DNA of 64,000 bases from a virus. Taxonomy: Duplodnaviria > Caudoviricetes. Shown one piece after another: positions 23,233 to 38,462 of the stretch. The position numbers and the translations under genes are program-made. Within the stretch, counting starts at the first letter, position 1. The number at the start of each line of letters is the position of its first letter. Below the pieces are notes generated by a model. The model did not search any database, was not told where the DNA came from, and saw only the letters and a list, made by a program, of their open reading frames with translations. The stretch is taken from positions 1 to 64,000 of IMG/VR virus record IMGVR_UViG_2923649072_000003; one strand, given 5' to 3'.

Positions 23233-23460
23233 ATGGTCGAGTTGCACGGCGGTCTCGCGGACGGACTGTGCTGTGGTGGGATCCCCTGGGGATGGCCGTG
23301 CGTGTGGATCACCGTCGACCGTGGCGTGGCCCTTGCGCTGCTCGATGCGCAGCGGTGGCCCGGGATGCTCGTCACCGACCCTGAGGTGCAGTGGACGATG
23401 TACGTGCCGCAGCGGCGGGGAGTGTGGCGGGCTCTCGGGGAGCGAAGCCCGTGGCGCTAG
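23233..23460 (+). CDS. hypothetical protein
   Basis: RBS GGAGG; VELHGG..DG start. Confidence 0.5.
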   Translation: MVELHGGLADGLCCGGIPWGWPCVWITVDRGVALALLDAQRWPGMLVTDPEVQWTMYVPQRRGVWRALGERSPWR

Positions 23461-23546
23461 TCGGGCTGAACGCAGTAGGCCCCGCCATCGGCTCTACCCC
23501 GTGATCAGCGAGGTCGGCGAGCGAACGGCGGGGCCTGTCAGTGAGG

Positions 23547-23888
23547 CTACTCGCCGCGCTGCTCGAGCTCGGCGATGCGGCGCTTCAGCTCCGGGATCTC
23601 AGCGAGCTGCTCGGTGACCTGATCCCGCCAGGCCTGCCATCCGACAGGATCGGGCGGGATAGGGAGCGCGAAGTAGCCTGCCCCGCGACGCCTCTCAATG
23701 ACGCCCTCGACGGCGAGTGCCTCCATTGCGTCCTTGATGACCTGTACGCCGACGCCCTGCTTGGCCCATTGGCTCTGGCTGGGCAGTTGCTCGCCCGGCT
23801 TGATTTCGCCTGCTGCGATGCGGCGCCTGAGGTCGTCGGCGATCTCTCTCCACTGGGCTGGCACGTGCTCATGATGCCCGACCATCAC
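23547..23888 (-). CDS. GntR-family wHTH regulator (KorA/TraR-like); start may be GTG 23864
   Basis: WREIADDLRRRIAAGEIKPGEQLPS...L..EG.IERRRGAGYF. Confidence 0.85.
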   Translation of the reverse strand: MMVGHHEHVPAQWREIADDLRRRIAAGEIKPGEQLPSQSQWAKQGVGVQVIKDAMEALAVEGVIERRRGAGYFALPIPPDPVGWQAWRDQVTEQLAEIPELKRRIAELEQRGE

Positions 23889-23928
23889 TCGCTCGGAGCA
23901 GGCAACTGAAGTTACCTCCCCGTTCGAC

Positions 23929-23963
23929 TTGACCTAGGTCTTGCCTAGGTCTCTACTTAGGTT
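23929..23963. promoter_or_regulatory. divergent promoter/operator with CCTAGGT repeats
   Basis: palindrome GACCTAGGTC 23931-23940, then GCCTAGGTC and CTTAGGT; TTGACC -35-like. Confidence 0.55.
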
Positions 23964-23965
23964 CC

Positions 23966-24166
23966 ATGAAGGAACGGAGCAATGGGAGCAGGTTCCTGAC
24001 GACAGGTCAGGTCGCCGACCTCCTGGGGCTCTCCCGCTGGACCATCCGCCGCAAGTGCGAGGCAGGCGACTACAAGGGCGCCGACCGTCCCGCCGGACCC
24101 ACCGGCCAATGGCGCATTCCCGCCGCGGCGATCCAGCACGACGACCCACGGAAGGAACCGTCATGA
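23966..24166 (+). CDS. excisionase-like (HTH_17/MerR-type) DNA-binding protein
   Basis: FLTTGQVADLLGLSRWTIRR...GQWRIP. Confidence 0.8.
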   Translation: MKERSNGSRFLTTGQVADLLGLSRWTIRRKCEAGDYKGADRPAGPTGQWRIPAAAIQHDDPRKEPS

Positions 24167-25076
24167 CCGCCACCGCCACCCGCCGGAAGCCCCGCGTCGC
24201 AGGCCATCCCAAGTGCCCGATCGGATGCCCCGACTGTCACCTCCCCATCAAGGGAAAGACCCGACGGGAACGGGACTTCTTCATTGGCGTCCATCGGGGC
24301 ATGCACCACGGCGTTCGCTAACCGAAACCACAGCATCCACGGGGGAAACGATGATGCTCGCCGTACGAGAGACCTACACCGGAGTCGCCCGCGAATGGCG
24401 GATCCTGCGCTCCGGCAATGAAGTCCGCACCGAACACATGACCCGCGAACAGGTCAACGACCTCCTGCGGGACCTCAACCAGATCGACGACTGTTACTCG
24501 GCGGAGGCGGCCTGATGGCGAATCTCAGCGAACACGTCACCGCGATGACGGGCGACAACGACATCCCCAGCATCCGTGAACGGCGCCAGTTCCCGTGGCG
24601 CCGGGCCGTCCACTGGCTCGGGTGGGGGATCTTCCTTCCCGGCATGTGGTTCGTGATGACCGGATTCCTCGATGTCCTCTCAAGTGGAGCGGGTCTTCCC
24701 GTCTCTGCTCCTGACCCGACGACCTTCGCGGTGCGCCAGATCGCGGGAATTGCTGCAGTGGGCCTTGGCTCGCTGATGTGGGAGAAGCGGCCGTGAGTGA
24801 CGACCGATGCTGTCAGGCCTGCGGACATCGCAAGTCCGACGTGCAGCCCAGGAACGTGCCTGCCAAGGGTGGGTGGCCGGCCGTGCGAGATGCGCTGCTG
24901 TGCGGTGGGTGCGCGAAGGATCTGGGGGCGTCGTGAACGTCCTGATCTACGTGCTTGCCGCAGTCGGGGTGCTGACTCTGTCGGCCATCGTCACCGGTGA
25001 TCCGCTGTGGATCCCGTCCCACGTCGGGGTGGTCGTGGCGCACCTGGCGGACGCGATCGAAAGTCTCTTCAAGTAG
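24163..25076 (+). other. small ORFs ahead of the tra operon: 24163-24321 (Zn-finger-like), 24351-24515, 24515-24796 (2 TM), 24933-25076 (TM)
   Basis: coupling, RBSs, hydrophobic segments. Confidence 0.5.
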
Positions 25077-25149
25077 TCCTCCGGCAAGAAGGAGGCGTTC
25101 AGTGTCATCCGAGTTGCCAGACCGCTGGCAATTAGCAGAGGAGTCCGTA

Positions 25150-25425
25150 ATGCACGCAGTTCACCAGGGCGCAGTCTGGCTCGCCAGCGAGACCGACGGT
25201 CCGTCCTTCAACTCGAACGGCCTCGTCGAGTGGGGCGTCCAGAACATCATCCCTCTGGTTCTGCTTGTCATCGGTATCGGCATCATTGCCAGCGCCCGCA
25301 AGGGGGCGATGAAGGACAACGCGAACACGGTGACGAACGTGATCATTGGGCTCTGTGTCATCGCCGGAGCAGCCGTGCTCTACGGGTTCGCTGGCCAGCT
25401 TACTGACCTGATGTTCTCCGCCTGA
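25150..25425 (+). CDS. TcpD/VirB2-like small membrane protein
   Basis: 91 aa, two TM helices separated by a basic loop, first gene of the T4SS-like operon. Confidence 0.55.
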   Translation: MHAVHQGAVWLASETDGPSFNSNGLVEWGVQNIIPLVLLVIGIGIIASARKGAMKDNANTVTNVIIGLCVIAGAAVLYGFAGQLTDLMFSA

Positions 25426-25781
25426 TGAGGTCCCGCCCCGATGACCTGATTTACCAGGCGGACACGGTCTGGCTCGGGCCCCAAGGCATGACGTGGCCCT
25501 GGGTGGCTCGCTACAAGGCGTACGGCGTCTGGCTCCTGACCTTCCTCGGGATCCTCCTCGTCGAGGCCATCACCCCCTTGAAGGTCGGTATCCCTCCCGT
25601 CTGGGAGCTGTGCATCTCGATCCTCGCCACGTACGCCGTGATGAGCCTCGTCACCCACGAACGCCCCCTGTCGAGCCTGTGGCGCGTCCTGCTCGCGGAG
25701 GTGAAAACCCCTCGAGCGCAGCGTGTACGCCGGTCCCGCCCCGTGGACCGCTCCCTGAAAATCGTCCGGAAGGCACCCTGA
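25425..25781 (+). CDS. TcpE/VirB3-like conjugation membrane protein
   Basis: two TM helices, directly upstream of the VirB4 ATPase. Confidence 0.6.
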   Translation: MRSRPDDLIYQADTVWLGPQGMTWPWVARYKAYGVWLLTFLGILLVEAITPLKVGIPPVWELCISILATYAVMSLVTHERPLSSLWRVLLAEVKTPRAQRVRRSRPVDRSLKIVRKAP

Positions 25782-28441
25782 TGTTCCGCAAGAACAAACC
25801 CGCAGGCGAGGTGATGCCCAAGTCGCCGCTCGCCGCTTCCATGATCGACGGTCACATCGTCTACACCGGATCCGACGTGTGGGCGTGGCACGAGATCCCC
25901 ACCCAGCGGTGGGCGTTCCGTGCCGACGGTGAGCGCCTGAACCTGATCCTCGACATCGCCTCCCGGACCGCCGCATTGCAGGGACGGCAGATCCGCATGC
26001 GGGTCACAGCTCAGCCCCTCGACGCCGCACGGTGGGCCGACACTCTCGGCGGGGAACTGACACCGGCCCCGCTGCCTGGGTACGGCGAGCATCTCGCCAC
26101 GGTCCGCGACCACCTCTCCGAGGGGGTCGGTGCGCTCAAGCGCGCCTACATCGGCGTTCGGCTCACGGCCCGCCAGGGCGGCGGGCCGGTGAACGCGGCG
26201 TTCGACAAGGTGATGGGCCGGGCATCGCAGGGCCTCGAGAAGAAGGTCCGCGACGACGCGGCCATCGTCGCGGAAACCCTGGCCGGGGTGGGTATCGAGG
26301 CTGAGCCGGCGAGCGCGGCTTCGATGGAGTGGCTGATGCGTCGCTCTATCGAGCTGGGTATGCCCGCCCCGCAGGAACTCTCTCCGAGCGAGGCCGAGGG
26401 GCGCTGGGACTCCGGGGACCTGCACGAGCTGACCGAGAACGTCTCCCACGAGGCGGGCATGCTGTCCGACGAGGTGAAGGTGATCGGGCGTGGCCGGCTC
26501 GCCGGTCTCGAGCGGTGGGTGTCCGTGCTGACGGTGGGGCGGGTCGATCAGATCGAGATCCCGGACCCGGCGCACGTGCCGTGGCTCGCCGAGACCGACC
26601 GGCTCCCCTTCCCCGTCGAGTGGTCGATGAACCTGACCGTCCTGGACGGCGATCAGGCGAAGAAGGCCGTGCAGCGCAAGCTCCTCGTCATCCGGGACAT
26701 GCAGAAGCACTACGCGGAGCACGGCCTGGACGAGCCGCTCGCCCTTGAGCGGCAGGTCGAGCAGGCCCGGCAGGTCGAGGACGAGATGACGACGGGCCGC
26801 GACGTTCAGGCGACCCGCGTGCACGGCTGGTACCGGGTGGCCGTGTGGGGTGAGACCCGAGAGGAGTGCCGTGAGCGCGCCCGGATCCTGATCGACCGGT
26901 ACCGCAAGCGTCAGGTCACGATCGCGCGGCCGAAGGGCCAGTGGGGGCTGCTGCGTGAGTTCATCCCGGGTGAGCCGCTGTCGGACGCCGCGTACCAGCG
27001 GCGGCTCCCGGCCCTGTACTTCGCCGCCGGGGTCCCGCAGACCGCGTCGGCTCTCGGTGACGGCCGCGGCCCGTACATCGGTCACACGACGGGCGCCGGC
27101 CACCAGGCCGTCAACTTCGACACGCACTTCTCCACGGAGGTCCGGGAGACCTCAGGTCTCGTACCGATCGTCGGTGGCCTCGGGGCCGGCAAGTCGGTCC
27201 TCGCGGGGCTCATCACCTATGAGGCCGTGCGTCGCGGTGTTACGTCCGTGATGCTCGACCCGTCCGGGCCTCTCGCGGCACTGACGAAGCTCCCCGAGCT
27301 GCAGGAACACTCGCGGCACATCGACCTGATGGCCGCCCCGGCGGGCACACTGAACCCGTACGCGGTCGTCGCGCAGCCGCGGTCGGTCGACTACTTCGGC
27401 CGGCCCGACGAGCTGGAGGAGGCCCGGACGCTCGCGGCGCAGGACCGCAAGCTCCTCGCGATCGACGTGGCGACCATGCTGCTGCCCGCCGACCTGGCGA
27501 CACAGGGCCGCGCCCGGCTCCTGATCACCGAGGCGGTGCGCTCGACTCGGGGCCTGCCGACGGCGTCGCTGTGGCAGGTCGTGAAGTACCTCGAGCAGGA
27601 GAGCGACGGCAAGGACATTGCCGCGTACATGCGGGACATGGCCGAGATGCCGATGGCCCGCCTGTTCTTCCCCAATGAGGGAGACGGCCAGGCGCAGAAC
27701 GACGACTCGGACGAGGCGAAGCTGACGGTCCTCACGATGGCGGGTCTGGTTCTCCCGCCGAGCTCGGTCCCGCGCGAGCACTGGTCGACGACCGAGCAGC
27801 TCGCGGTGCCGCTGCTGCACCTCGCGTCCTGGTACGCGACTCGCACGATCTACGGCCGGCCCCGGGACGAACGCAAGCTCGTGGCCCTCGACGAGACCCA
27901 CTTCCTCGGCGAATGGGGTGCGGGCCGGGCGCTGTTCAACCGACTCGGCCGTGACTCCCGGAAGTGGAACACGTGCGTTCTGGCCGCGTCGCAGAACCCG
28001 GCGGACGTGCTGGGCATGGAGGTGTCGAACTTCGTGTCGGCAGCGTTCGTGGGTCGGATCCAGGACGAGAAGGTCGCGGAGGATGCTCTGCGGCTGCTGA
28101 ACGTCCCGGTCGGTGACGGGTACGAGGGTGCGCTTGCTCGGTTGTCGCCCCGGTCGATGTCGGGTCAGCGGTCGGGTGTGCGCGAGTTCGTGATGCGTGA
28201 CGTCGATGGGCGCGTGGACAAGATGCGCGTCGACCTGGATCACCTGCCGAGTCTGCTGGCTGCGCTCGACACAACTGCGGCGCCAAGTTTGCCGCGACCG
28301 GAGCCGGCAGCCGACCACCATGCGGCCACGATCGAAAGCTTTGAGGAGCGGACCATTCGGCTGCCACAGCCGGCGCGGACGCGCCGGGCGATGCCAGCCG
28401 CAGTGGATAACGTCACCGCCGGGCTGGGCGGTGGCCAGTGA
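25781..28441 (+). CDS. virB4: VirB4/TcpF-like conjugation ATPase
   Basis: ~886 aa; Walker A GGLGAGKS, LDPSG, Walker B LVALDETHF, RDSRKWN..LAASQN. Confidence 0.85.
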   Translation: MFRKNKPAGEVMPKSPLAASMIDGHIVYTGSDVWAWHEIPTQRWAFRADGERLNLILDIASRTAALQGRQIRMRVTAQPLDAARWADTLGGELTPAPLPGYGEHLATVRDHLSEGVGALKRAYIGVRLTARQGGGPVNAAFDKVMGRASQGLEKKVRDDAAIVAETLAGVGIEAEPASAASMEWLMRRSIELGMPAPQELSPSEAEGRWDSGDLHELTENVSHEAGMLSDEVKVIGRGRLAGLERWVSVLTVGRVDQIEIPDPAHVPWLAETDRLPFPVEWSMNLTVLDGDQAKKAVQRKLLVIRDMQKHYAEHGLDEPLALERQVEQARQVEDEMTTGRDVQATRVHGWYRVAVWGETREECRERARILIDRYRKRQVTIARPKGQWGLLREFIPGEPLSDAAYQRRLPALYFAAGVPQTASALGDGRGPYIGHTTGAGHQAVNFDTHFSTEVRETSGLVPIVGGLGAGKSVLAGLITYEAVRRGVTSVMLDPSGPLAALTKLPELQEHSRHIDLMAAPAGTLNPYAVVAQPRSVDYFGRPDELEEARTLAAQDRKLLAIDVATMLLPADLATQGRARLLITEAVRSTRGLPTASLWQVVKYLEQESDGKDIAAYMRDMAEMPMARLFFPNEGDGQAQNDDSDEAKLTVLTMAGLVLPPSSVPREHWSTTEQLAVPLLHLASWYATRTIYGRPRDERKLVALDETHFLGEWGAGRALFNRLGRDSRKWNTCVLAASQNPADVLGMEVSNFVSAAFVGRIQDEKVAEDALRLLNVPVGDGYEGALARLSPRSMSGQRSGVREFVMRDVDGRVDKMRVDLDHLPSLLAALDTTAAPSLPRPEPAADHHAATIESFEERTIRLPQPARTRRAMPAAVDNVTAGLGGGQ

Positions 28442-30357
28442 TGCGGCGGGTACTGGCGGCCCTTCTGCTGGCGGTCGTTGCGCTGGTCGGTCTTGCTGGC
28501 TCGGCGGCGGCGAAAGATGGCCCAGACGTCCCGGACCCGACGAACCCGAACTGCTGGCTGTCTCCCAAGCCCGACTGCTCCGGCACGACCGACAACCTGG
28601 TCTCGGACGTCGCGGACTGCAAGGACGCCCCGGACCCCGAGGTGCCCGGCCGAGGCATCACGGGCTTCTTCACCCACAAGCCCGACAAGCTCCCAGCGGA
28701 CGAAGACCCGTTCGCTGATGGTGCCCGCGTGTCGATCTACCAGGTGTACGGGTACGCAGGCCTGCGGTTCAACACGTACGACCTGGGCTGCGGTGGCGAC
28801 ATCGTTCGTAACCCCGACGCCGTGGTTGGTAACGCCATAGCGAACTGGATTTTCCAGGTTCCTAAGTCGGTGATCTCGGCGACCGCGGCGCTGGCCGGCG
28901 CCGCGTTGCAGCCGGAGTTCCTGACCGCGTTCAACCCGCTCGTTCAGAATGTCGTGGACGCGCTGCACGCGGCACTGTTCTTGAAGTGGGGGTGGATCGC
29001 GGTCGCTCTCACCGGCGGCATGCTGATCTACAACTCGCGGAAGCAGGCACTCTCGTCGTCGGCAGGCATGGTCGGCTGGGTGCTCCTGGTCATGATCGTG
29101 GTGTCCGCCGTGCTCCGCTGGCCGCTCGCGGCGGGTGAAGCTGCGGACAAGACGTCGGCTGCGGTGCTCACGTCCGTGTCGTCCGGGATCACGGGCACCG
29201 ACCCTGCGATGGCGTCGAGCCCGGGTGAGTCTGGCGCTTCGCTGATGCACGAGTCGGTGCTGTATGACTCTTGGCTGTCTGGCACTTTCGGCAGCAGCGA
29301 CTCGAAGACCGCTAGGGAGTATGGGCCGAAGATCTTCGCGGCGACTGCGCTGACGTGGCGTGAGGCTGCGGTTCTCGAGCAGGACCCTGATGAGGGCAAG
29401 AAGATCATCGAGGAGAAGAAGGAAGCCTTCAAGGAGCTCGCCGACCGGCTGAAGGAAGAAGACCCCGACGCGTACGCGAACCTCTCCGGGAAGCGATCCG
29501 ACACCCGGGTCGGGTTCACATTTCTCGCGCTGGCCGCCGCGTTCTGCCTTGTCCCGTTCCTCTTCATGGCCGCGCTCCTCGTCATCGGGGCGCTGATCAT
29601 CATCCGCGTCGGCGTCATGGTCACACCCGGCCTCGCGACCCTCGCCCTCTTCCACCAGGCCCGGGGAATCCTCATCGGGATCGGCAGCACCATGGCCGCC
29701 GCGATGGTCAACAGCCTCGTCTTCGGGTCCATGTCGAGCGTCTTCATCCTCGCAATGGGACAGCTCATGGTCTCCGATGGCATCCCCGGCTGGCTGCGGA
29801 TCATCCTCATGCTCTTGCTGACCGTGGTGTTCTGGGTGGCTCTGCGGCCTTTCCGGAAGTTGACGCGAATGGTGTCGGCATCCAGCCTGCAGAGCACGTT
29901 CCGGGACGCCGCAGGCTCACCTCTGGCCGAGGCGAAGAAGGGCGCGAAGACCGTCGGGAAGATCGCGACCACAGCTGCCGGGGTGTTCGCCGGGGCTCGG
30001 CTCGACGCTGCCGTCGGTGACCTGAAGTCGGAGCCGAAGAAGCGCGCAGAGGCCGACCCCGACGTCACCGTTGAGGTCCGGGACCTGCCGGCATCCCCGC
30101 CACCGCCCCGCCGCCGGGCGATCGAGGCGCCGCCGAAGCCGCAGCTGCCCGGTCCGCCGAGCGGGAATCCGTCGCCCATGGGGCCCGGGCCGACCCCGCC
30201 CGCACTCCCTCCGGCCGCGGCGCCCGAGCCGCCGGACTCTCCCGCCCCGGTCAGGAAGATCGTGACCCGCCCCGGCGACGACGGACAGCCCCTGGAAGGC
30301 GTCGTCATCCCGCCGTCGTGGATGCCGCCGGTCCGCTACGAGATGGAGGACGCGTGA
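28438..30357 (+). CDS. VirB6/TcpH-like polytopic membrane channel protein
   Basis: signal peptide, many TM helices, Pro-rich C-terminal tail; follows VirB4. Confidence 0.7.
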   Translation: MMRRVLAALLLAVVALVGLAGSAAAKDGPDVPDPTNPNCWLSPKPDCSGTTDNLVSDVADCKDAPDPEVPGRGITGFFTHKPDKLPADEDPFADGARVSIYQVYGYAGLRFNTYDLGCGGDIVRNPDAVVGNAIANWIFQVPKSVISATAALAGAALQPEFLTAFNPLVQNVVDALHAALFLKWGWIAVALTGGMLIYNSRKQALSSSAGMVGWVLLVMIVVSAVLRWPLAAGEAADKTSAAVLTSVSSGITGTDPAMASSPGESGASLMHESVLYDSWLSGTFGSSDSKTAREYGPKIFAATALTWREAAVLEQDPDEGKKIIEEKKEAFKELADRLKEEDPDAYANLSGKRSDTRVGFTFLALAAAFCLVPFLFMAALLVIGALIIIRVGVMVTPGLATLALFHQARGILIGIGSTMAAAMVNSLVFGSMSSVFILAMGQLMVSDGIPGWLRIILMLLLTVVFWVALRPFRKLTRMVSASSLQSTFRDAAGSPLAEAKKGAKTVGKIATTAAGVFAGARLDAAVGDLKSEPKKRAEADPDVTVEVRDLPASPPPPRRRAIEAPPKPQLPGPPSGNPSPMGPGPTPPALPPAAAPEPPDSPAPVRKIVTRPGDDGQPLEGVVIPPSWMPPVRYEMEDA

Positions 30358-30836
30358 TGAAGCTCCTGTTGCAGCACAAGTGGGCCGTGACCGTGGCGGT
30401 CATCGCAGCGATCGCGATCGTAGTGTCCGGTCGTTTCGGCGGGCGCGACCTGGCGCCGCCCGCCCCGACGTCTACGGCGCCGGCCGGTGCGTATACGGTC
30501 GACAGTCTCCTGTCGGTCAGCCGGGCCGCCGAAGCCGCGCAGAATTTCGTGCGCCTGTGGGCATTGCCCCTGCCTGGCGACACGACCGAAACGTGGGAGG
30601 AGCGGCTCGATGGGCTCGTCACCCACGACCTCGGGCGCGGGCTGCAGGTCACCGACCTTGGCAACCTGCCGCGTCTCGGCCTGTCGAAGGCGACGCCGCC
30701 GGACGTGCGAGCGGTGTCGACGCGATCGGCGACGGTCGTCGTGACCCTGGAGGACGGCTCGGAGATTGCGTGCGAGGTCGTCATTTACGGGCCTGGATAT
30801 GCGGTCGGCAGCTTCGCCGGGATCGACGGCGACTGA
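30357..30836 (+). CDS. VirB8/TcpC-like bitopic protein
   Basis: single N-terminal TM plus AAQNFVRLW NTF2-like soluble domain; operon position. Confidence 0.5.
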   Translation: MKLLLQHKWAVTVAVIAAIAIVVSGRFGGRDLAPPAPTSTAPAGAYTVDSLLSVSRAAEAAQNFVRLWALPLPGDTTETWEERLDGLVTHDLGRGLQVTDLGNLPRLGLSKATPPDVRAVSTRSATVVVTLEDGSEIACEVVIYGPGYAVGSFAGIDGD

Positions 30837-31870
30837 TGCGCAAGGGATGGGTTATCGCAGGCCTCTTGGCTCTCGCCGCGCCGCTGTCGCTGATCGTGCC
30901 GGTCGTCGGGATGGTCATGGTCACCGGCATCTCGACCGACGGGGAGGTGCCGCCCAGCGGCACGCAGCCTGTGTCGTGTGGGCAGCCCGCCGGTGAGGCG
31001 ATCAGCCTCACGTCGGCGGAGCAGCGGGCGAACGCGAAGACGATCATCTCGGTCGGTGTCGAGCTGGGCGTGCCAACCAAGGGCCTGATCATCGCAATCG
31101 CCGTGGCCCGGCAGGAAAGTCGGATCGAGAACCTGCCGTACGGCGACCGTGACTCGGTCGGCCTGTTCCAGCAGCGGGCCGGCTGGGGCACTCTCGCTGA
31201 GCGCATGGATCCGCCGACCTCGGCCCGGAAGTTCTTCACCGGCGGAACCGAGGCCGGGACCACCGGGCTCCTCGACACGCCCGGCTGGGAGGGCATGTCG
31301 GTCGCCCGGGCGGCGCAGGCAGTCCAGCGCTCTGCTTACCCGGCGGCGTACGCACAGTGGGAGGGGATGGCGACCACCGTCGTGCAGCAGGTCCTCGGGT
31401 CCGGGCCGGCTCAGGAGTGCACGCCCGAGCAGACGCCGGGCGCATGTCCCGCCTCGACGGACCTGTCCGGCTACCCGAACGGCGAGATCCCGTCATCCGC
31501 ACTGTGCAAGATCGCGTTCGCACCTGAGCATCGACTGCGGTCTGACGCCGCACTGGGGCTCGAGCGCCTCAATGTCGCCTATCGCGAGCACTTCCGCCGG
31601 GACATCTGCATCACCGACTCTTACCGTGACCTAGCTACCCAAGTTCGCCTGAAGCGGGAAAAGGGGGCCCTTGCGGCGACCCCGGGGACAAGTAACCACG
31701 GGTGGGGCCAGGCGCTCGACCTCTGCGACGGGATCAACACGGGGCCCTCCGCGGAGACATACCGGTGGATGAAGACGAACGCCCCGACGTACGGCTGGGT
31801 ACATCCCGCCTGGGCTGAACCCGGCGGCTCAGGGCCCCTCGAGTTTTGGCACTGGGAGTTCGACACATGA
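30836..31870 (+). CDS. conjugation peptidoglycan hydrolase: lysozyme-like domain plus M15 (VanY-like) peptidase
   Basis: AVARQES...DSVGLFQQR..WG...AQAVQRS; DSYR...Q...PGTSNHGWG.ALD...E.WHWEF. Confidence 0.85.
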   Translation: MRKGWVIAGLLALAAPLSLIVPVVGMVMVTGISTDGEVPPSGTQPVSCGQPAGEAISLTSAEQRANAKTIISVGVELGVPTKGLIIAIAVARQESRIENLPYGDRDSVGLFQQRAGWGTLAERMDPPTSARKFFTGGTEAGTTGLLDTPGWEGMSVARAAQAVQRSAYPAAYAQWEGMATTVVQQVLGSGPAQECTPEQTPGACPASTDLSGYPNGEIPSSALCKIAFAPEHRLRSDAALGLERLNVAYREHFRRDICITDSYRDLATQVRLKREKGALAATPGTSNHGWGQALDLCDGINTGPSAETYRWMKTNAPTYGWVHPAWAEPGGSGPLEFWHWEFDT

Positions 31871-31968
31871 CGATCAACCCCGCCTGGACCCGGGCGCCTA
31901 CTAATTACCAACTCGCTGGCAGCCAGCCGCTTGTTACCAGCCGATCAGCAAGTCGCTACCCTGCCCCC

Positions 31969-32271
31969 ATGGAGAAGCTGCCCGCCTCGTTCACTGAGCT
32001 GCTCAGCGTGATGATCCAGTACGTCGAGCTCAGGGACCGACTTCGGGACGTCCGCGAGACCGCGGCCGGCGACCTCCACGAGCTCGGATGGCCAGCCCAG
32101 CGAATCTCGGACGAGCTGAAGGCGCAGCTCGAGGCGCTGAACTTGTCCGACTCCCAGCTTCGTTCGCTCGGCGTGTCCAGGGCGACGATCGATGCGGACA
32201 TCCGGTCCTGGCGCCGGGAGCAGGAGAAGGCCGTGACGTCCGGTCGGCGGAAGCGAGTGTCCGGCGACTGA
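31969..32271 (+). CDS. small putative DNA-binding protein
   Basis: LGVSRATIDADIR resembles an HTH recognition helix; TACCCT 6 nt upstream suggests a leaderless start. Confidence 0.5.
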   Translation: MEKLPASFTELLSVMIQYVELRDRLRDVRETAAGDLHELGWPAQRISDELKAQLEALNLSDSQLRSLGVSRATIDADIRSWRREQEKAVTSGRRKRVSGD

Positions 32272-33355
32272 CCGGGTGATTGTCCGGCCTTCCGATGTCC
32301 GGCCGCCGGGGTTGAGGTTGTCCGGTCTGGTGGTGCGCGGTTCCGGCCGGCCGCTGAGCCGCCCACTTCACCTCTCGGGACTTCCCGGATTGATCGCGCT
32401 GAGCTTGCTCTCTCTTCGGTGAGGAAGCTTGCCCCGCAAGCTGATCCACCATTTCCCAGCTCTGGGTGCACTGCAGCTTGAGACCTCCTCGGTAAACCTC
32501 GTCGGCCTCAAGCTGAGCTTACCCATGCTGTCAACTAGTTGCTAGCTGGCTGGCAACTAGCAACCTGCGAGGAAGCATCCTCGCTGACTCATCCTGCTGT
32601 CACTTGCGATTCGCGGGCCCGCCGCTGAGCCTGGTCGCTCGTGTCGCTCTGCTAATTGCTAGCGGATTGGTAATGTGAAGTCATGTCCGAGCATCACCGC
32701 AGGCTGGGCGTCGATTACGCCCGGGATCACGACCGCCGCATGTCGGAGATCTATCCCGACGGCGACGAGCCGTGCCACTACCTCGCACGCCTGGACCTCG
32801 GGCACTGCGAAGGGAAGGTGAAGAACGAGGAGCACGGTCAGATCGCGAACGAACGGCACCACGTCAAGGAGCTCGCCGACAACCGGGGCAAAGACAACGC
32901 GAAGGTCACGGTCCCCGCATGCAGGAGGCATCACCAGATCATGACCAACGCGAACAAGGCCGCCCGGGCAGGCAAGCCCGTCGGCGGACAGACCCCGACG
33001 AGTCGAGGCGGACAACGACGCCCATCGAAGGGCGGACAACCGGGCGGACAGAACCCGGACAACGGAGCGGACAGCCAGCCCGCCTGGGTGCGCCGTCACC
33101 TACTCGCCGCTGGCGCCGTCCTCATGATCGGTGCCGTCCTGTGGATGGCGGACATGTCCGGGGAGGCCATCCTCCTCGGCTCGTGCACCGCGGTCTACGG
33201 GGCGGCGCTGGCCTACTACTTGAACGTCCGCTGGACCCGCGCCCGGGACCTTGCCGAAGTCCACTCGCTCGCTGTCCGGTCGATCAAGGCCGACCCGCGG
33301 ATGGTGCGTGTCGACCGGCCCCGGTGGCGGTGGCAGGCGGGCATGAAGGCGGACA
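32258..33355. repeat. divergent arrays of (G/C)CGGACA octamers
   Basis: TGTCCGG[C/T] at 32258/32281/32296/32319; GGCGGACA at 32983/33007/33031/33043/33147/33348, variants at 33054/33066. Confidence 0.65.
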
Positions 33356-35031
33356 TCGTCCGGTGCCGGATCTTCTTCCCCGGTGTCGAGTACATGACCG
33401 ACCCCGGCACGCGGGCCCGAGTCGAGAAAGACTTCTGGGTCGCGCTCCATGCCCGCATCGATTGGCCGGCTCATGCGCTCCACCCGCACTTCGATGTCCG
33501 AGTCGTGCCCGTGGATGCCGGGCCGGGTCGCGGACCGGTGGCCGTCGAGGCCGAGCCGCAGGAGGAGACCCGCGAGAAGATCCGCACCACGATCGAGGAG
33601 GACCTTCACAAGACGATGAAGTTGAAGGAGAAGCAGAAGCTGACCTTCACGATCGTCGAGCGTGACGCCGAGGGCCCGCTCGTGTGCACGCTGGACTACC
33701 CGGCCGGATTCCAGGACGGGTCCGAGGAGGCGTGCTACCTGGTCCAGGAGCGGATCAGTGCCCAGCTCGACGGGATCCGGTTCGTCGCTCAGTGGGATCG
33801 CCGGGCCGAGAAGAAGCGGCTGACCCTGACTCGTCGGCCCGAGCTGCCAGCCGAGGTGCCGTTCCGGTTCCCGGCCCCGGGGGAGCGGCTGGACCCGATG
33901 GTCATTCCGCTGGGGATCGATGAGACGCAGCGCGAGCGGGCCTGGAACCTTCGCGTTCACCCGCACATGATCTTCGCCGGGGCGACCGGGGCCGGGAAGT
34001 CATACACGCTCGCCGAGCTGATCTACCAGCTCCTCATCCGCGGGTGGCAGCTCATCCTGATCGACGGCAAGGGGACCACCTTCGCGCCGTTCCGGCGGTG
34101 GCCCGGCGTTGTGGGCTACGGCCTCGCGAACGCGCCTGAGTCAATGGCGCACTGGATGGAGCAGGGCAAGTACATCACCGAGGAGCGGTATGACCAGGCC
34201 ATCGATCACGACGTCGACCCGGCGAGTTTCCCCCGCCTGATGGTCCTGATCGATGAGCTGACCGAGGCTAACGAGAACGTCGCGGAGTGGTGGAAGGAGC
34301 TGCGTTCGAAGGAGAAGGAGCTGCCTCGGGAGTGCCCGGCGATCGGGGCGTGGGCTTCGGTGGCCCGGAAGGGTCGCGAGGGTGGAGTGCACCTGCTGGT
34401 GGCTACACAGCAACCCAACGCCTCTGACAACACGTTCGGGTCGACGGAGACGAAGGCCAACCTTGCAGGGCGGTTCTTCCTTGGCCCGACCGAACAGCAG
34501 TCAGCGCTCATGATGTTCGGGCGCTCGACCCTGGGCCGAGACATCCCCGAGGACACGAAGGGCCGCGGGACGCTGAAGGTGTCACCCCAGGAGCCCGGGG
34601 TCGAGGTACAGACGTACTTCACGCCGCGCCCCAAGCCTTCCGGCGCGATCGCCCCTGAGCATGAGACGTTCTTCGCGAAGCTCATGCCGCTCGTGGAGGC
34701 GGCGCAGGCGAAGGTGAAGCGGGTCGCCCCGGCTGGCGGGTCCATCGACATGCGCCCGGATCCTCGGTTCCGTGAGATCGAGCCGACGAAGCCGGCTCGG
34801 CAGCGAACCCTTCCACTCGAGCAGACCCCGACCATCGACGTGTGGGACCTGGCGGCCCGGCTGAAGGACGAGGACGTCGTGGAGTGCTGGCTGGACGGCG
34901 AGCGCCTAAAGGTCGTCGAGGTCATCGGTGAGGACGAAGTGGAGATCACCCACGTCGACGCGGAGGGCAAGCAGCAGACACTCATCGTGGACGACTCGGC
35001 CCGGTTCGAGCTGCGAGGTGAATCGTCGTGA
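32683..35031 (+). CDS. FtsK/SpoIIIE-family (TraB/TcpA-like) DNA translocase with N-terminal HNH-like domain
   Basis: 2 TM; PHMIFAGATGAGKS, LIDGKG, LMVLIDE, RKGREGGVHLLVATQ; N-terminal C..C..HHV..C.RHH. Confidence 0.85.
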   Translation: MSEHHRRLGVDYARDHDRRMSEIYPDGDEPCHYLARLDLGHCEGKVKNEEHGQIANERHHVKELADNRGKDNAKVTVPACRRHHQIMTNANKAARAGKPVGGQTPTSRGGQRRPSKGGQPGGQNPDNGADSQPAWVRRHLLAAGAVLMIGAVLWMADMSGEAILLGSCTAVYGAALAYYLNVRWTRARDLAEVHSLAVRSIKADPRMVRVDRPRWRWQAGMKADIVRCRIFFPGVEYMTDPGTRARVEKDFWVALHARIDWPAHALHPHFDVRVVPVDAGPGRGPVAVEAEPQEETREKIRTTIEEDLHKTMKLKEKQKLTFTIVERDAEGPLVCTLDYPAGFQDGSEEACYLVQERISAQLDGIRFVAQWDRRAEKKRLTLTRRPELPAEVPFRFPAPGERLDPMVIPLGIDETQRERAWNLRVHPHMIFAGATGAGKSYTLAELIYQLLIRGWQLILIDGKGTTFAPFRRWPGVVGYGLANAPESMAHWMEQGKYITEERYDQAIDHDVDPASFPRLMVLIDELTEANENVAEWWKELRSKEKELPRECPAIGAWASVARKGREGGVHLLVATQQPNASDNTFGSTETKANLAGRFFLGPTEQQSALMMFGRSTLGRDIPEDTKGRGTLKVSPQEPGVEVQTYFTPRPKPSGAIAPEHETFFAKLMPLVEAAQAKVKRVAPAGGSIDMRPDPRFREIEPTKPARQRTLPLEQTPTIDVWDLAARLKDEDVVECWLDGERLKVVEVIGEDEVEITHVDAEGKQQTLIVDDSARFELRGESS

Positions 35032-36032
35032 CCAAGGAGCGTTTCGACTGGGGCCGGCTGGTCATCGCCGTCGCCCTCATTGCGATCTTCACCGCGAGTA
35101 TTCACGCGGAGATCGAGGCCGGTAAGTTCGTCGGGCTGGGCGACTTCGCGTACGCGCTGCCTTTCGCGATCGACTCGTATGTGATCGCCTCCGTGATGAC
35201 TCGCCTCGACGTGGGCCAGGCATTCGCCGTCATGGGCGTCAGTGTTGGCGGCGGGCACTTCTTGATCGGCATGAAGAAGGGCGTTGAGTACGGCGCTGCG
35301 GCGGCAGCGATCGGGATCCTGCTGACCGTGGTTTTGTGGCGGGTCCACACGCTGATGGAAAAGCGGAAGGAGCGACGGGAAACCGCCGCTGCGGCCGTTG
35401 CTGCCGAGGAGCAGAAGGCCCGTGGCGCGGAGATTGCCGAGCGTGCGCGTCTGGCCCAGATTGCCCGCGATGACGCTGAGCACGCTGCCCGGCTCGAGGC
35501 TGAGCGCATCGAGCGTGAGGAGGCTGCCCGTCGTGCCCGCGTGCAGGCAGAGCTGGACCGCAAGGAGGCCGACGCCCGGATCGCCCGCGAGACCCGTGAG
35601 CACACGGCGCGTCTCGCCGCGGAGCAGGAGGAGCGCCGGCTGAAGTCGCAACGGGAGCGCGAGCAGGCCGAGGCCGCCCGGGTTGAGCGTGAGCGCCTGG
35701 CTGCGGAGGCTCGAGCTCGTGAGGCTGAGGCGAAGGCTGCGGCCGAGCGGGAGGCGGCGGAGCGGGCGAAGGCCGAGGCGTCGGCAGCTCGAGCAGCGAA
35801 GCCGAAGACCGCGACGGAGCGAGTTGAGCAGTCTGCTGGCCTTCGGGCAGTGCCGGCGCCGAAGGGCAAGCCGAAGTCGGCGTCAGAGCAGGCTCGCGGG
35901 CTGGCTCCTGAAGTCGTCGCCGGGCGAATCTCGCCGCGCGAAGCCGCGGAGCGAATTGGTTGCGACCCGAGCATCATCCGGCGCGCCGTCCGGGAGCTGA
36001 AGAGCGATCAGCCAGAGGCGGTGAACGCATAG
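35028..36032 (+). CDS. Spd-like membrane protein with coiled coil and C-terminal HTH
   Basis: 4 TM helices, long E/R/A coiled coil, SPREAAERIGCDPSIIRR. Confidence 0.6.
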   Translation: MTKERFDWGRLVIAVALIAIFTASIHAEIEAGKFVGLGDFAYALPFAIDSYVIASVMTRLDVGQAFAVMGVSVGGGHFLIGMKKGVEYGAAAAAIGILLTVVLWRVHTLMEKRKERRETAAAAVAAEEQKARGAEIAERARLAQIARDDAEHAARLEAERIEREEAARRARVQAELDRKEADARIARETREHTARLAAEQEERRLKSQREREQAEAARVERERLAAEARAREAEAKAAAEREAAERAKAEASAARAAKPKTATERVEQSAGLRAVPAPKGKPKSASEQARGLAPEVVAGRISPREAAERIGCDPSIIRRAVRELKSDQPEAVNA

Positions 36033-36881
36033 TGCTCAATTCGACACACGGACCTACAGGCTCGCTGGCCGGAATCCTCGCCATGCGGGCCGGGATCGCT
36101 TTCGGTGCGGCGCCTGCCGACCCCGCCCTCGCCATCTGGCACGTCGCCGGCGCGACGGCGGGCGGCATGCTCCCCGACGCCGACCATCACGCGTCCTCGA
36201 CGGCGAAGGTGTGGGGTCCGCTCACGTCGATTCCGGCGCGCTGGTTCGGGCGGATGGTTGGCGGGGCACCGGGCCGGCAGTCATGACCTGAGTAAGGGTG
36301 CGCCGGTCCTGTTCGCCGCGGTGTTCGCGGTCGGCCTGCTGGCGCCTCGGCTGGTCGAGTTCGCTGTGTCGCCTGAGCCTTCACCGGTGGGGGACTGGGC
36401 TCGGCTGGTCGCCAGGCTGACGGGGATGGGTGTCGTCGCGTTGATCGCGGGCCTGTGTTTCGTTGCTCTTGCCGCTCTGATCCCGGGGCGCTGGGAGGGT
36501 TCGGGTGCCGGCAATCTGGTCGCGTCGTGGATTACGGCGCTGTGGGTGACGCACTGGTACCCGGCGGGTCTTCCGTGGCAGGTTGTCGCGATGGCCGCCG
36601 GGGGCATGGCGCTGGGTGCGACGACGGCGATCCTGCAGGACGCGTGCACGATCTCGGGTGTCCCGTTCGGGGTGGAGGAGGTCGAGCGGGAGGTGCGGGG
36701 TGTGACGCTAGTGAAGACTCGCGAGCGGCGCCTGCACCTGCTGCCGAGGGACTTCCGGATCCGCACTGCGTCTGCGTTCGAGCGGCACTTCATCCGGTTC
36801 CCCGTGCTGTGCCTGGTCGTGTGGCAGTCGTTCGAGCTGGCTGCTGATTGTGGCCTGTTCGGGAGCCCGTTCGCGTTGTAA
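36032..36881 (+). pseudogene. membrane metal-dependent hydrolase (YdjM-like), frameshifted near 36263
   Basis: STH, LPDADH in one frame; HRAGSH and DACT.SGVP in the other; one extra G in GGGG. Confidence 0.7.
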
Positions 36882-36905
36882 ACCCGCAAGCAGAGGCGGG
36901 TTTCA

Positions 36906-37004
36906 CTCAAGACTGGCCATCGACGGTCGATGGTCGTGTAAGGGCTCGCCCCGGCTCCACTCGCACGGTTGCACCCGCGTGAGCTTCGACGCCAAGGGCG
37001 AGCT
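36906..37004 (+). promoter_or_regulatory. sigma28/WhiG-like promoter plus structured leader (copy A)
   Basis: CTCA-N16-GTCGAT; stem GCTCGCCC/GGGCGAGC; near-copy at 45771. Confidence 0.6.
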
Positions 37005-37034
37005 GTCCACCCGATCCCAAGGAGATCGAGCGAC

Positions 37035-38462
37035 ATGTCCTACCTTTCCATGCCCGGGTTCGTGCGTCGTGGAGGCGTGCGTCGGGTGTTCGCCGGAGCT
37101 TCACTCGGTTGTCTGGCGGTGGCTGGGGCGATCCTGGTCCCCGGTCCGGCGCAGGCTGCTGAGGCTCCGATCCAGGCGGCTGCGTGCCGGGAGCTCGGCT
37201 ATCAGCTCGACGCCGGCCCCAAGCTGAAGGCCGCGGCAGGGTTCCGGACCGAGTGGATCGGCAACCTGTGCGTCGACGGACGCGCGGGGATCTGCGACGA
37301 CTACGGCCTGTCCGCACCGGACGGCCAGTGGATCGACAAGCCTGCGAAGCGCCGGCCCGGGAGCGATCGGGCGACGCAGGTCGAGCAGTACATCGCCAAC
37401 GCGCACCCGACCGCGATGACCGACTCGAAGACGACGTCCGCGGCGTACAAGTCGGCGATCAACCGGGCCGTCAGCAAAGGCTTCCGCTCGGACTGGGAGT
37501 CCACGTACAAGCCCAAGTTCCGCAGCCTCGACCCGCAGGTCATCAAGCTCGCCGACGCGTGGCTCGCCGACGCCGAGAGGAACGCTGGCCCCGTGAAGGT
37601 GACGGGAGGGCTCACGTCCAAGCCGCTGCCGGGCGGGAAGGGCCGGATCAGCATCACGGCAACGGGCAACGGGAAGGCGCTGACGGGTGCCCAGGTTTCA
37701 TGGAAGGTGTCCGGTGGCAAGGTCCTCACGTTCTCTAAGACCACCACGGCGAAGGGGCAGGCCGTACTCGACTTCACGCGCGGGTCGGGCCCGGTGAGTT
37801 TCGCGGCGGTGGTGACGTCTCCGGAGTGGCGCACGTCGATGTGGTCGCGGCCGACGTCGGGGAAGAAGCAGCACCTGATTCGCGGTGGGGTCACGGTGAA
37901 GACGACGATCACCGGGAGGTTCGACTCGTTCCCCGGGATCACGGCGTCGACGAAGTGTGTCCCGGACTGCAAGGGCCGCCCGCCAGTGACGCTCGCCGCG
38001 AAGTCGTCGGGGTCGCCGATGCGCTGGCAGGCTCTCGTCGGGGGCAAGGTCGTGAAGACGCTCGAGGTCAGTGCCGGGAAGACGGCGGCCGGCACGTTCA
38101 CGGGTGTCGACGGCCAGCGGGTGGCCTTCCGCTACCAGGTGCAGGTCGGCGGGAAGTGGTCCGGGTGGCGCACGGTCAGCAGGACGTTCGACGTCGTGTG
38201 CCCGGCCGTGCCGCTGTTCAGCATCACGGGCACGTGTGACTGTGGGGGGCACGGCATGGTCGCCCTCCACATCCAGGCGCCCGGTGGACCCCGCACCTAC
38301 GACGTGACCTACGGCGGCGAGACGAAGCGGATTAGTGGCAGCGCGGCGGTCGACTTCCAGGTGCCGATGGCTCAGCTCGCCGGCGCGCGGGTCACGTACG
38401 ACGCGCTTGACTCGGCGGGGAAGCGGCTCGGCGGGGGAGTGCTGACGCCGTGGACGCGGTGA
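37035..38462 (+). CDS. secreted beta-rich (Ig-like) protein
   Basis: signal peptide ending PAQA; T/G/K-rich beta-strand pattern, paired Cys. Confidence 0.7.
   Translation: MSYLSMPGFVRRGGVRRVFAGASLGCLAVAGAILVPGPAQAAEAPIQAAACRELGYQLDAGPKLKAAAGFRTEWIGNLCVDGRAGICDDYGLSAPDGQWIDKPAKRRPGSDRATQVEQYIANAHPTAMTDSKTTSAAYKSAINRAVSKGFRSDWESTYKPKFRSLDPQVIKLADAWLADAERNAGPVKVTGGLTSKPLPGGKGRISITATGNGKALTGAQVSWKVSGGKVLTFSKTTTAKGQAVLDFTRGSGPVSFAAVVTSPEWRTSMWSRPTSGKKQHLIRGGVTVKTTITGRFDSFPGITASTKCVPDCKGRPPVTLAAKSSGSPMRWQALVGGKVVKTLEVSAGKTAAGTFTGVDGQRVAFRYQVQVGGKWSGWRTVSRTFDVVCPAVPLFSITGTCDCGGHGMVALHIQAPGGPRTYDVTYGGETKRISGSAAVDFQVPMAQLAGARVTYDALDSAGKRLGGGVLTPWTR

Follow-up and report, generated by a model that had tools for sequence, protein, structure and literature searches.

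Six co-transcribed genes of SLP2 are reported to be required for conjugal transfer (PMC2782261, citing Xu et al. 2006), and the parts that the SLP2 cassette is reported to need for the process are a motor of FtsK type, an ATPase like VirB4, membrane proteins and a hydrolase (PMC2782261). In an emerging model, double-stranded DNA is moved end-first and without a nickase by a motor of FtsK type, in some cases together with a VirB4-like partner and VirB6/VirB8-like membrane proteins (PMC13492992). TcpA-type systems pair with MOB_T (Rep_trans) or TcpM relaxases, and Guglielmini et al. (2012) reported TcpA homologues only in Firmicutes and TraB in Actinobacteria (PMC3548315). Elements that join the virion route to another kind of mobility include phage-plasmids (PMC12282955), the Escherichia coli element p1002-1, a conjugative phage-plasmid cointegrate (bioRxiv 10.1101/2025.03.14.643293), and tandems of a phage with an ICE (integrative and conjugative element) in Streptococcus (PMC13651849); these were the only such cases returned by the literature searches made, in which no published tailed actinophage with a conjugation cassette was found. 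The locus considered here lies in a stretch of 64,000 nucleotides (positions 1 to 64,000 of IMG/VR virus record IMGVR_UViG_2923649072_000003, Caudoviricetes; the window), in which an original prediction, made from the letters alone, had placed a relaxase-less conjugation module inside a contractile-tailed actinophage. The element is read here as a temperate phage that carries a resident transfer cassette of actinomycete plasmid type, which would give it two exits, through virions and through contact-dependent transfer; judged on sequence, the chances of this reading are evenly balanced. A second prophage with the same cassette, in another species of the genus (G039), carries much of the comparison.

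The phage context of the original prediction stood, with one correction: the window corresponds to G000:C1:5850604-5914603, inside the single-contig, 8.07-Mb chromosome of a soil actinomycete, where it forms part of a prophage. A 24-bp direct repeat at window positions -870 and 85291 bounds an element of 86.2 kb. The G+C content at third codon positions (GC3), which together with reading frame was used to call genes, is ~0.90-0.96 in host genes vs 0.75-0.89 in genes from window position -670 to ~85,300; overall G+C is 64-71% across the window, with no compositional break at the cassette. The repeat lies in the 5' part of a transporter-like gene, and a tyrosine integrase gene (window 83978-85279; PF00589, 6.3e-12) ends 12 bp before its right copy (attR). 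That no integrase was visible is thus correct for the window and incorrect for the element, the integrase lying ~20 kb past the window's right end. A PF00589 scan of the genome returned ten tyrosine recombinases, one of which (5,935,202-5,935,774) is the element's integrase gene; no serine recombinase was found in the element, and the three matches of a genome scan with PF00239 are all distant from it. No third copy of the 24-bp repeat was found at up to 6 mismatches across the scanned region, and exact copies number two genome-wide. A congener (G040) has an empty attB, where 83 bp of left flank (90% identity) and 1152 bp of right flank (88%) map to a single locus and overlap on exactly the 24 bp. 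Given the single att pair, the one integrase and the empty attB in the congener, the 86.2-kb element is a single insertion with one integrase.

Misassembly, which the original prediction had named as a way for it to fail, is ruled out by contigs from three runs of two studies (possibly all one strain), which follow the same layout throughout 18501-38500 and whose listed pieces show 0 mismatches. The same contigs contain no joint of an excised form, although contigs cannot reveal excision. One of these runs (X3, 2014), deposited under another organism label by another study, contains 18501-38500 with 0 mismatches in the listed pieces and single-base gaps only; it probably represents the same strain and not an independent occurrence. 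Window 20902-21226 is also matched by another contig of the source runs with 38 differences, so the gene at 20842-21252 has a diverged second copy elsewhere in the genome. The same chromosome holds a second prophage-like region (G000:C1 ~1,074,000-1,101,600) with a TerL of 35% identity (1,089,748-1,091,310) and recombinases of the tyrosine type at 1,074,232 and of the serine type at 1,101,200, and without a VirB4 match.

The cassette lies between a convergent pair of XRE-type helix-turn-helix (HTH) genes (22023-22421, plus strand, and 22418-22693, minus strand; HTH_3, 7.8e-11 and 1.9e-9) and ~38.5 kb; all of its genes are intact, and every module gene named in the original prediction was recovered at or close to its predicted position. 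Divergent from the cassette on the minus strand is a GntR-family regulator (23547-23888; PF00392, 6.2e-13). The cassette genes that follow are all on the plus strand. An excisionase-type HTH_17 protein (23966-24166; PF12728, 2.3e-7) is a probable Xis/RDF protein or cassette activator, and a small conserved protein of ~54 amino acids (aa; 24351-24515) had its start inferred from alignment, at 70% identity over 53 aa, to a G039 open reading frame (ORF) at 13393-13557. The conserved core of type IV secretion system (T4SS) genes begins with a protein of two predicted transmembrane (TM) helices (24997-25425), followed by a second such 2-TM protein in the VirB3/TcpD-E position (25425-25781) that is translationally coupled to VirB4. 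Small TM proteins are encoded in this part of the cassette besides the two 2-TM proteins. Small 2-TM proteins are thus indeed encoded 5' of VirB4, while the earlier label 'TcpD/E-like' reflects position only. The VirB4/TcpF-like ATPase itself (25781-28441; 886 aa), whose start was placed from the switch in GC3 frame together with a TGATG overlap, matches AAA_10 at 3.2e-29 and NCBIfam TcpF at 1.5e-38, the latter far below the curated cut-off. Next is a polytopic membrane protein with a signal peptide and at least six hydrophobic segments in the VirB6/TcpH position (28438-30357), which scores 1.1e-6 (27.8 bits, cut-off 120) against the CD3337/EF1877 mobilome membrane protein family.

The VirB8/TcpC/TraM-like protein (30354-30836; 160 aa) has an N-terminal TM helix and an NTF2-like domain, and its AF2 model (pLDDT 81.7) has as its best VIA match TraM of pIP501 (Z 11.0, rmsd 2.6 A, 99 aligned), with 3ub1 (Z 10.7), an 'Ntf2 like protein involved in plasmid conjugation', and VirB8 (Z 10.1) also at the top. 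The margin is small, generic NTF2 proteins reaching Z ~9 and the T4SS VirB8-like proteins standing ~1-2 Z units higher, and Foldseek alone gave no match at E ≤ 0.001 (best E 5.8e-3); the predicted VirB8-like gene is this one, on the basis of its TM helix, its fold and this order of VIA matches. A bifunctional cell-wall hydrolase (30833-31870) combines a TM helix with a muramidase-like motif at its N-terminus and a peptidase of VanY/M15 type at its C-terminus (VanY 1.7e-9), and a small soluble protein (31867-32271) has a G039 gene at the same position with no detectable similarity. Beyond the motor gene described below come a membrane protein (35028-36032; 334 aa; TM prediction), possibly DUF2637/SpdB-like, with a long charged coiled coil and an HTH-like C-terminal end, a membrane protein from a 258-aa ORF (36105-36881; TM prediction), and the last conserved cassette gene, which encodes a secreted protein with a signal-like N-terminus and Ig-like repeats (37035-38462; Big_1 3.3e-4, below cut-off), a candidate adhesin or surface factor. 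A gene is present where the original prediction placed a Spd-like one; its identity is a lead, given by Atlas feature scores of 0.90-0.91 for DUF2637 clusters and 0.78-0.83 for SpdB families, and it had no Pfam, PHROG or NCBIfam match.

The motor gene (32683-35031; 782 aa) encodes a DNA motor of FtsK/TcpA type with a putative N-terminal HNH domain, two TM helices and a small C-terminal beta domain, and its product is a putative coupling protein or translocase from its sequence (FtsK_SpoIIIE 3.3e-12) and its model. The best match in a search of PDB sequences was TcpA of pCW3 (6o1w, 6.4e-7), followed by EccC, TrwB and FtsK, and Foldseek matched the AF2 model (pLDDT 82.9, from a 39-sequence alignment) to FtsK motor domains (3.1e-15) and TcpA (1.0e-14). 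The modelled C-terminus (residues 717-777) is all-beta, and FtsK_gamma is matched in 1 of the 39 members of alignment A4. Relatives were almost lacking from a word-index search and numbered 2392 at E ≤ 0.001 and 80 at E ≤ 1e-30 in an exhaustive HMMER search, many of them aligning from residues 53-59 onward. A 19-sequence alignment (A2) shows a D/E-H...N...C..HH pattern at the N-terminus, with His60 and Cys80 invariant; Pfam run on the 39 members of A4 matched FtsK_SpoIIIE in all 39, HNH_5 in five (best 2.1e-8) and HNH in four (best 8.3e-13). GC3 indicates that the N-terminal region is coding in the motor's frame, and the model places strands at 57-60 and 76-79, then a helix at 81-96, with pLDDT 54-86. 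Since HNH models match members of the family and His60 and Cys80 are conserved, the motor probably belongs to an HNH-2TM-FtsK fusion family, its own putative HNH domain being divergent in sequence.

Repeat arrays surround the start of the motor gene. The motif GGCGGACA occurs 14 times in the window vs 5.55 +/- 2.64 times in shuffled sequences (0 of 100 shuffles reached 14), and six of the 14 copies fall in 32983-33355. For the 7-mer SCGGACA, 32194-33355 contains 15 copies where the genome as a whole averages 0.40 per kb, and among the 6720 bins of 1.2 kb in the genome only the one at the motor start holds eight or more, an adjacent bin holding six. Two clusters can be told apart: an upstream SCGGACA cluster at the end of the preceding gene (32194-32326; five copies, four inverted) and a downstream (G)GCGGACA cluster in the 5' part of the motor gene (32983-33355; ten copies, eight in plus orientation) whose copies do not all share one codon phase. 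The stretch 21476-22995 of G039 holds 14 of the 25 GTGGACA copies in 100 kb, again as a mixed upstream cluster and a direct downstream cluster in the 5' part of the motor gene, here in all three codon phases. The motifs of the two phages differ by one base, being GGCGGACA here vs GGTGGACA in G039. Their position, architecture and phage-specific variants argue for a DNA-level signal tied to the motor, and the array is a candidate clt/oriT-like cis site. We take the 8-bp repeat cluster near the motor gene to resemble clt with its TraB recognition sequences.

Further repeats were noted in the same searches. Four other bins of the host chromosome (G000:C1) carry six SCGGACA copies each (starts 3,783,601; 3,681,601; 2,878,801; 2,202,001), and one six-copy bin lies ~4 kb from a tyrosine recombinase gene (2,874,800) and could represent the repeats of another transfer element. 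CTAG-rich palindromes (CAACTAG/GCTAGC-type boxes) occupy the low-GC spacer 5' of the motor in both phages (window 32440-32680; G039:C2 22100-22290) and are probably an operator for a shared regulator.

The original prediction proposed looking for the module in related phages, and the G039 prophage carries the same cassette in the same order. Within the part compared (G039:C2 1-100000), positions 1-71017 have phage-like GC3 and end in an integrase of 46% identity, after which host genes with GC3 >0.92 follow; a TerL match of 32% identity lies ~44 kb from this genome's second VirB4. In order, the G039 cassette encodes the XRE pair (60-72% identical), the HTH_17 and small proteins (70% each), VirB4 (36%) and the polytopic protein (28.5%), then a TM protein of 169 aa, the hydrolase (49% across 339 aa), a protein of 131 aa, the HNH-FtsK motor (35% across 811 aa) and, last, the SpdB-like (47%), membrane (50% over 203 aa) and secreted (49% over 492 aa) proteins. 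All cassette ORFs are full length in both prophages despite protein identities of 28-50%. Homologues of six more genes from the 44-49.5-kb region of the window, and in addition an endolysin (62%), lie 3' of the G039 cassette, so that in both elements the cassette is flanked by homologous phage genes. The G039 virion genes are unlike those of the window phage and of siphovirus type, with TerL (phrog_9), a protease, a major head protein (phrog_29, 8.2e-60), a major tail protein and a 1493-aa tape measure. Among 49 genomes of the family the HNH-FtsK protein occurs in two, both copies within these two prophages.

Divergence is uneven along the cassette. The VirB4 and polytopic proteins (window 25781-30357 vs G039:C2 L134 14856-19537) have diverged further, at 36% and 28.5% identity, than the adhesin-like, SpdB-like and hydrolase proteins at 47-50%, and in a FastTree phylogeny the G039 VirB4 forms a long branch outside the chromosomal-type clade that holds the VirB4 of the window phage. 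The tree, taken with the orthologous motor and accessory genes, implies that one of the two phages exchanged its channel core, and suggests that the core was swapped between a phage and a chromosomal cluster.

The proposed working of the cassette follows from these parts. The integrase, with the Xis-like HTH_17 protein, would excise the prophage as a circle, and the operon under GntR/XRE control would build a monoderm T4SS-like channel through the envelope from the two 2-TM proteins, the VirB4/TcpF ATPase, the VirB6-like polytopic protein, the VirB8-fold protein and the two-domain peptidoglycan hydrolase. The membrane-anchored, hexameric motor of FtsK/TcpA type would recognise the GGCGGACA-type array that flanks its own promoter, in the manner of clt, and its putative fused HNH domain might nick or cut the DNA at the array in place of a relaxase. 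The motor would then pump phage DNA into a touching cell, probably double-stranded and end-first as proposed for SLP2-type linear plasmids, while the SpdB/DUF2637-like, 258-aa membrane and secreted Ig-like proteins may aid contact or spread, and the integrase would insert the DNA at the 24-bp attB of the recipient. The phage would in this way leave by virions with lysis or by contact-dependent transfer without it. On genomic grounds there is a strong case that the cassette is the phage's own and is selectively kept; the case for transfer by mating draws on homology and on the repeat arrays. A wider version, which is offered tentatively and may well prove wrong, is that an actinophage lineage with both contractile and non-contractile tails owns a relaxase-free form of conjugation, in which an HNH-FtsK motor reads a phage-specific array, cuts there and pumps the double-stranded genome through a VirB4/VirB6/VirB8 channel, so that the lineage would spread by lysis and by mating and its channel core could be exchanged with a cmd-like cluster of the host.

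Several observations weigh against this proposal. No relaxase of a known Pfam family being found, the DNA-processing step is conjecture, and the window's motor protein itself has no Pfam HNH match above threshold and no obvious central Asn position. Of the downstream cluster's ten motif copies, four coincide with GGQ codons (the six exact GGCGGACA copies of this cluster divide into four that are in-frame GGQ codons and two in another phase), so the array may partly be a by-product of a peptide repeat, and k-mer scans of eight other loci and plasmids with related motors found no comparable array at the motor position (in one, L023, CGGATCC occurs six times inside the motor region vs three outside). 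Pfam recognised no major capsid protein in the element. The phage form is known from two genomes, and the G039 element is cut by a contig end. The nearest relative of the T4SS core (VirB4 65-72%) is a chromosomal cluster with the composition of the host, and the apparent Streptomyces counterpart of that cluster has a described role of another sort: cmdABCDEF (SCO4126-4131) of Streptomyces coelicolor, a chromosomal operon of six genes for five membrane proteins and an ATP/GTP-binding protein, homologous to the SLP2 transfer genes, is described as affecting sporulation, differentiation and the segregation of chromosomes, and it did not take the place of the transfer genes of plasmid SLP2 (PMC2782261).

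The host carries six paralogues of the T4SS core in the same order at 2.10 Mb (G000:C1:2100795-2108556), identical at 57% and 56% (2-TM proteins), 65% (VirB4), 55% (polytopic protein), 40% (VirB8-like protein) and 48% (N-terminal domain of the hydrolase). This cluster has a GC3 of 0.92-0.95 and housekeeping neighbours, its hydrolase ends in NlpC/P60 and not VanY, and it is without the motor, the Spd-like gene, the adhesin-like gene and the repeat array. Because of its similar make-up it probably corresponds to cmdABCDEF of Streptomyces. VirB4 of the chromosomal type occurs in 29 of 49 genomes of the family and in all six other genomes of the genus; in a quick IQ-TREE tree, the phage VirB4 pairs with a metagenomic protein (P0001; 72% identity, on a 49.7-kb contig) at an SH-aLRT of 100, and the pair is sister to the family's chromosomal clade. 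The likeness leaves room for a role other than transfer, in which the cassette would be a phage-borne, cmd-like membrane complex for host development or DNA segregation, moving phage or host DNA into spores or daughter compartments or altering hyphal differentiation by lysogenic conversion. The housekeeping setting of the paralogues, the placement of the phage VirB4 with the chromosomal clade and the developmental role of cmdABCDEF all favour it, but the motor, the SpdB-like and adhesin-like genes and the array are kept in both phages and are missing from the chromosomal cluster. The second phage, moreover, has a very different VirB4 core with the same accessory genes, which indicates that the full transfer-type set is what is conserved, and a cmd-like role is considered unlikely, though it deserves to be taken seriously.

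A role confined to the infection cycle, as an envelope-crossing or DNA-handling device at entry, exit or superinfection exclusion, with no mating, was weighed against searches of phage sequences. The hydrolase segment at 31144-31266 matches, by blastn, tape-measure genes of actinophages in 265 phage records, so its N-terminal motif is common to actinophage tape-measure proteins, and PHROG families match both VirB4 (phrog_24614, 3.3e-24) and the motor (phrog_1358, 'FtsK/SpoIIIE-like protein', 2.5e-27). Against 50,697 phage records, however, tblastn with VirB4 gave 3 matches, all in Enterococcus or Streptococcus phages at ~25% identity, and with the motor 91, none covering 80% of the query. The gene-for-gene match is instead to a plasmid transfer cassette, and a cis-acting array beside the motor would not be expected of an exclusion or lysis device; this explanation is held to be improbable.

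Transfer chiefly of other DNA, such as the host chromosome or other elements, or a need for a relaxase or helper in trans, is a further possibility raised by the lack of a relaxase in cis. Pfam scans of 60 element ORFs found no relaxase of a known family, as the original prediction had it, and no plasmid Rep or partition family, in keeping with its statement that a second Rep is missing. Six-frame searches with PF03432, PF08751 and PF02486 gave 0 matches genome-wide, the other MOB families being covered by the ORF scans, and Rep_trans is absent from the genome. A motor of FtsK type can work on whatever DNA bears its recognition repeats, and other 1.2-kb bins of the host genome reach six SCGGACA copies. 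The three genome-wide relaxase-related searches nevertheless find nothing, and the densest array lies on the phage beside the motor, in both phages and with phage-specific variants of the motif. Such a role is thought quite improbable.

The last explanation asks whether the cassette belongs to the phage at all. Codon use speaks for it: the cassette has a GC3 of 0.835 and correlates at r = 0.971 with the rest of the phage, vs r = 0.902 with the host flanks (GC3 0.902) and r = 0.895 with the chromosomal paralogue (0.914), which agrees with the predicted match in codon style. A direct repeat longer than 15 bp was sought between 17-25.5 kb and 35-46 kb and none was found. The att-bounded ICE with its own integrase and relaxase that the original prediction had set out as a danger to itself does not describe the locus, which has one att pair, one integrase and no third att copy; a nested ICE or phage-ICE tandem was rejected for want of a second integrase or att copy, and a phage-plasmid because the element is integrated between att repeats and lacks partition genes. 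The sequence evidence supports a cassette that belongs integrally to a complete-looking temperate phage, as opposed to a nested ICE, and its predicted embedding in a contractile-tailed phage is borne out by the single att pair and integrase, the phage-like codons and the homologous flanks in the second prophage. That it is a decaying or hitch-hiking remnant of an ICE or an actinomycete ICE (AICE) without function for the phage is very improbable: mobile elements often nest, and the presence of GntR here but not in the G039 element shows some turnover, but there is no internal integrase, serine recombinase, att copy or long flanking repeat, every ORF remains intact in both elements at protein identities of 28-50%, and both the codons and the flanking genes are those of phages.

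The wider distribution of the cassette was followed in metagenomes, virus collections, genomes and plasmids. Named database matches of VirB4 are 'ATP-binding protein' of Kineosporia, Spongisporangium, Kineosporiaceae and Nocardioides. A metagenome scan with P0001 as query gave 80 loci, among which the 49.7-kb contig of P0001 itself did not appear, with a homologue of the first 2-TM protein (24997-25425) in 56, of VirB4 in 72, of the polytopic protein in 35 and of the hydrolase in 32; the motor was present in 2 of the 80 and no other gene of the phage was found, many loci being short contigs. Neither VirB4 nor the motor, each used as a single-protein query, turned up a relative in IMG/VR. With a VirB4 alignment (A1), four IMG/VR contigs at 40-42% identity were recovered, three of which (L022-L024) combine the core with an FtsK-like gene; these do not qualify as hybrids of phage and cassette, phrog_9 TerL being found in one of the three (G050, ~66 kb from VirB4) and a weak portal match in one of the three. 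A motor alignment (A3) gave only five remote matches, to the ATPase domain, in IMG/VR, and in a profile search of the genome contigs no match. At the level of the class, a stricter first look for the motor in 401 genomes found 21 genomes at E ≤ 1e-30, with a match from near the N-terminus only in G068, G362 and G203. No VirB4 was found within the 38 kb of G362 examined. In G203, a member of another actinomycete family, a 15-kb contig (G203:C224; L131 32-9479) encodes in the same order a VirB4-like protein (24%), a protein of 772 aa, a hydrolase with 51% identity over the motif, a protein of 211 aa and an FtsK-like motor of the HNH family. Pfam scans of ten neighbour genes in G203, G362 and L023 found no relaxase. 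VirB4 matched 753 plasmid records, the best being Nonomuraea and Streptomyces plasmids at 36-39% over 93% of the query.

The remaining genes of the element are those of a tailed phage, and Pfam and PHROG matches confirmed the exonuclease, initiator, DnaB and baseplate genes on which the original prediction had based its phage arms. On the plus strand, the early or replication arm contains a PDDEXK exonuclease of the DUF3799 type with a role in recombination (4707-5636; PF12684, 6.5e-16), a phage replication initiation protein (11223-12215; phrog_2149, 5.1e-67) without a Pfam match or a PDB sequence match, and a DnaB-type replicative helicase (12134-13528; DnaB_C 1.5e-75, DnaB 2.2e-14). The same arm encodes a 704-aa protein with a C5 cytosine DNA methylase domain (8218-10332; 1e-14), and a 425-aa protein (1581-2858) for which Atlas scores were all <0.8. 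Among the small genes 3' of the cassette are a protein with an SAV_6107-like HEPN domain (39597-40025; 2.3e-28) and, on the minus strand, a phage antirepressor with a KilAC/ANT domain (42657-43241; PF03374, 7e-17). The right arm, also on the minus strand, encodes three consecutive large, tail-fibre-like proteins with GDSL-hydrolase domains (50969-56339; Lipase_GDSL_2 1.1e-18, 6.1e-25 and 5.6e-21), a Baseplate J-like protein (60112-61257; PF04865, 2.7e-20) and an NlpC/P60 protein. The virion module continues past the window to the terminase, with a sheath (1.7e-7), an SPP1 portal (4.6e-31), TerL, an M15 endolysin (2.6e-9) and a scaffold protein whose Pfam match is below cut-off; by tblastn TerL matches 2036 phage records, the best being Arthrobacter phage Hum25 at 66.8%. 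A tRNA-Met (CAT) lies on the minus strand between the endolysin region and the integrase (window 81519-81595). The gene content is that of a complete-looking temperate phage of myovirus type, which may produce virions.

Genes that travel by phage and genes that travel by conjugative element are treated as following two distinct paths, which differ in host ranges, costs and defences. If the proposal is true, a tailed phage with a machine for contact-dependent transfer would make that boundary less sharp: such a phage could pass between touching or mycelial cells with no death of the donor, escape resistance based on receptors and carry conjugation genes between plasmids, chromosomes and phages. 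The motor with its putative HNH fusion and its co-varying array are a candidate for how relaxase-less cassettes of the SLP2 type choose and open their DNA substrate, and through the close chromosomal paralogue the cmd-type developmental cluster, which is poorly understood, would be connected with mobile transfer systems.

Among known systems, the SLP2-type cassette (SLP2.19-23/pQC542.1c-6c) is like that of the phage in its parts list and in having no recognised relaxase. The comparison was made through pSM17C (NZ_CP029341.1), a 22-kb linear Streptomyces plasmid that encodes GntR, DUF2637, a type IV coupling protein (T4CP), two small proteins, VirB4, and 781-aa, 187-aa and NlpC/P60 proteins, and that PLSDB types as non-mobilizable, i.e. 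with no relaxase recognised. BLASTP matched 6 of the 13 plasmid proteins to the phage: GntR (37% over the HTH), T4CP, the 117-aa protein (35%, to the 2-TM protein at 25425-25781), VirB4 (37%), the 781-aa protein (32%, to the polytopic protein) and the hydrolase (39%). The two differ in setting, a linear plasmid vs an integrated tailed phage, and in layout: the motor lies 3' of the channel genes in the phage and 5' in pSM17C, a putative N-terminal HNH domain is present in the phage motor and missing from the plasmid T4CP, the hydrolase ends in VanY in the one and NlpC/P60 in the other, and a dense repeat array flanks the motor gene in the phage, unlike pSM17C. The hybrid of T4SS channel and TraB mechanism that had been predicted is consequently no new hybrid, its parts matching the SLP2-type cassette in the published account (PMC2782261) and in the BLASTP comparison.

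With the Tcp locus of Clostridium perfringens pCW3 and the MPF-FA/FATA T4SSs (Tn916, ICEBs1, pIP501) the phage shares a TcpF-like VirB4, a polytopic protein that may be CD3337/EF1877-like, a motor of TcpA/FtsK type and the VirB8/TcpC/TraM fold, with the difference that its TcpF and CD3337/EF1877 NCBIfam scores are far below the curated cut-offs; unlike TcpA-type systems, it resides in a host genome without Rep_trans. The likeness to the TraB/Spd systems of Streptomyces, which transfer double-stranded DNA (pSVH1, pIJ101 and AICEs such as pSAM2), lies in the membrane-bound FtsK-type motor, the adjacent and possibly SpdB/DUF2637-like protein and the GntR-type control. TraB systems need no VirB4 channel. 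The phage motor further differs in a modelled C-terminus that is a small beta domain and not a winged helix, and the phage has no AICE-type Rep. The likeness to cmdABCDEF is that the host of the phage has a comparable cluster, to which the phage core is 40-65% identical.

Compared with phage-plasmids, the element is integrated and without plasmid replication or partition genes; compared with phage-ICE tandems, it has one att pair and one integrase; and in contrast to recent cointegrates, its cassette is common to two diverged phages with different virion modules. The SLP2-type mechanism is thus already known, and its residence in tailed phages appears to be unreported. What is new here is the same cassette in two differently tailed prophages, with motif arrays that differ by one base and with a chromosomal paralogue that is widespread in the family.

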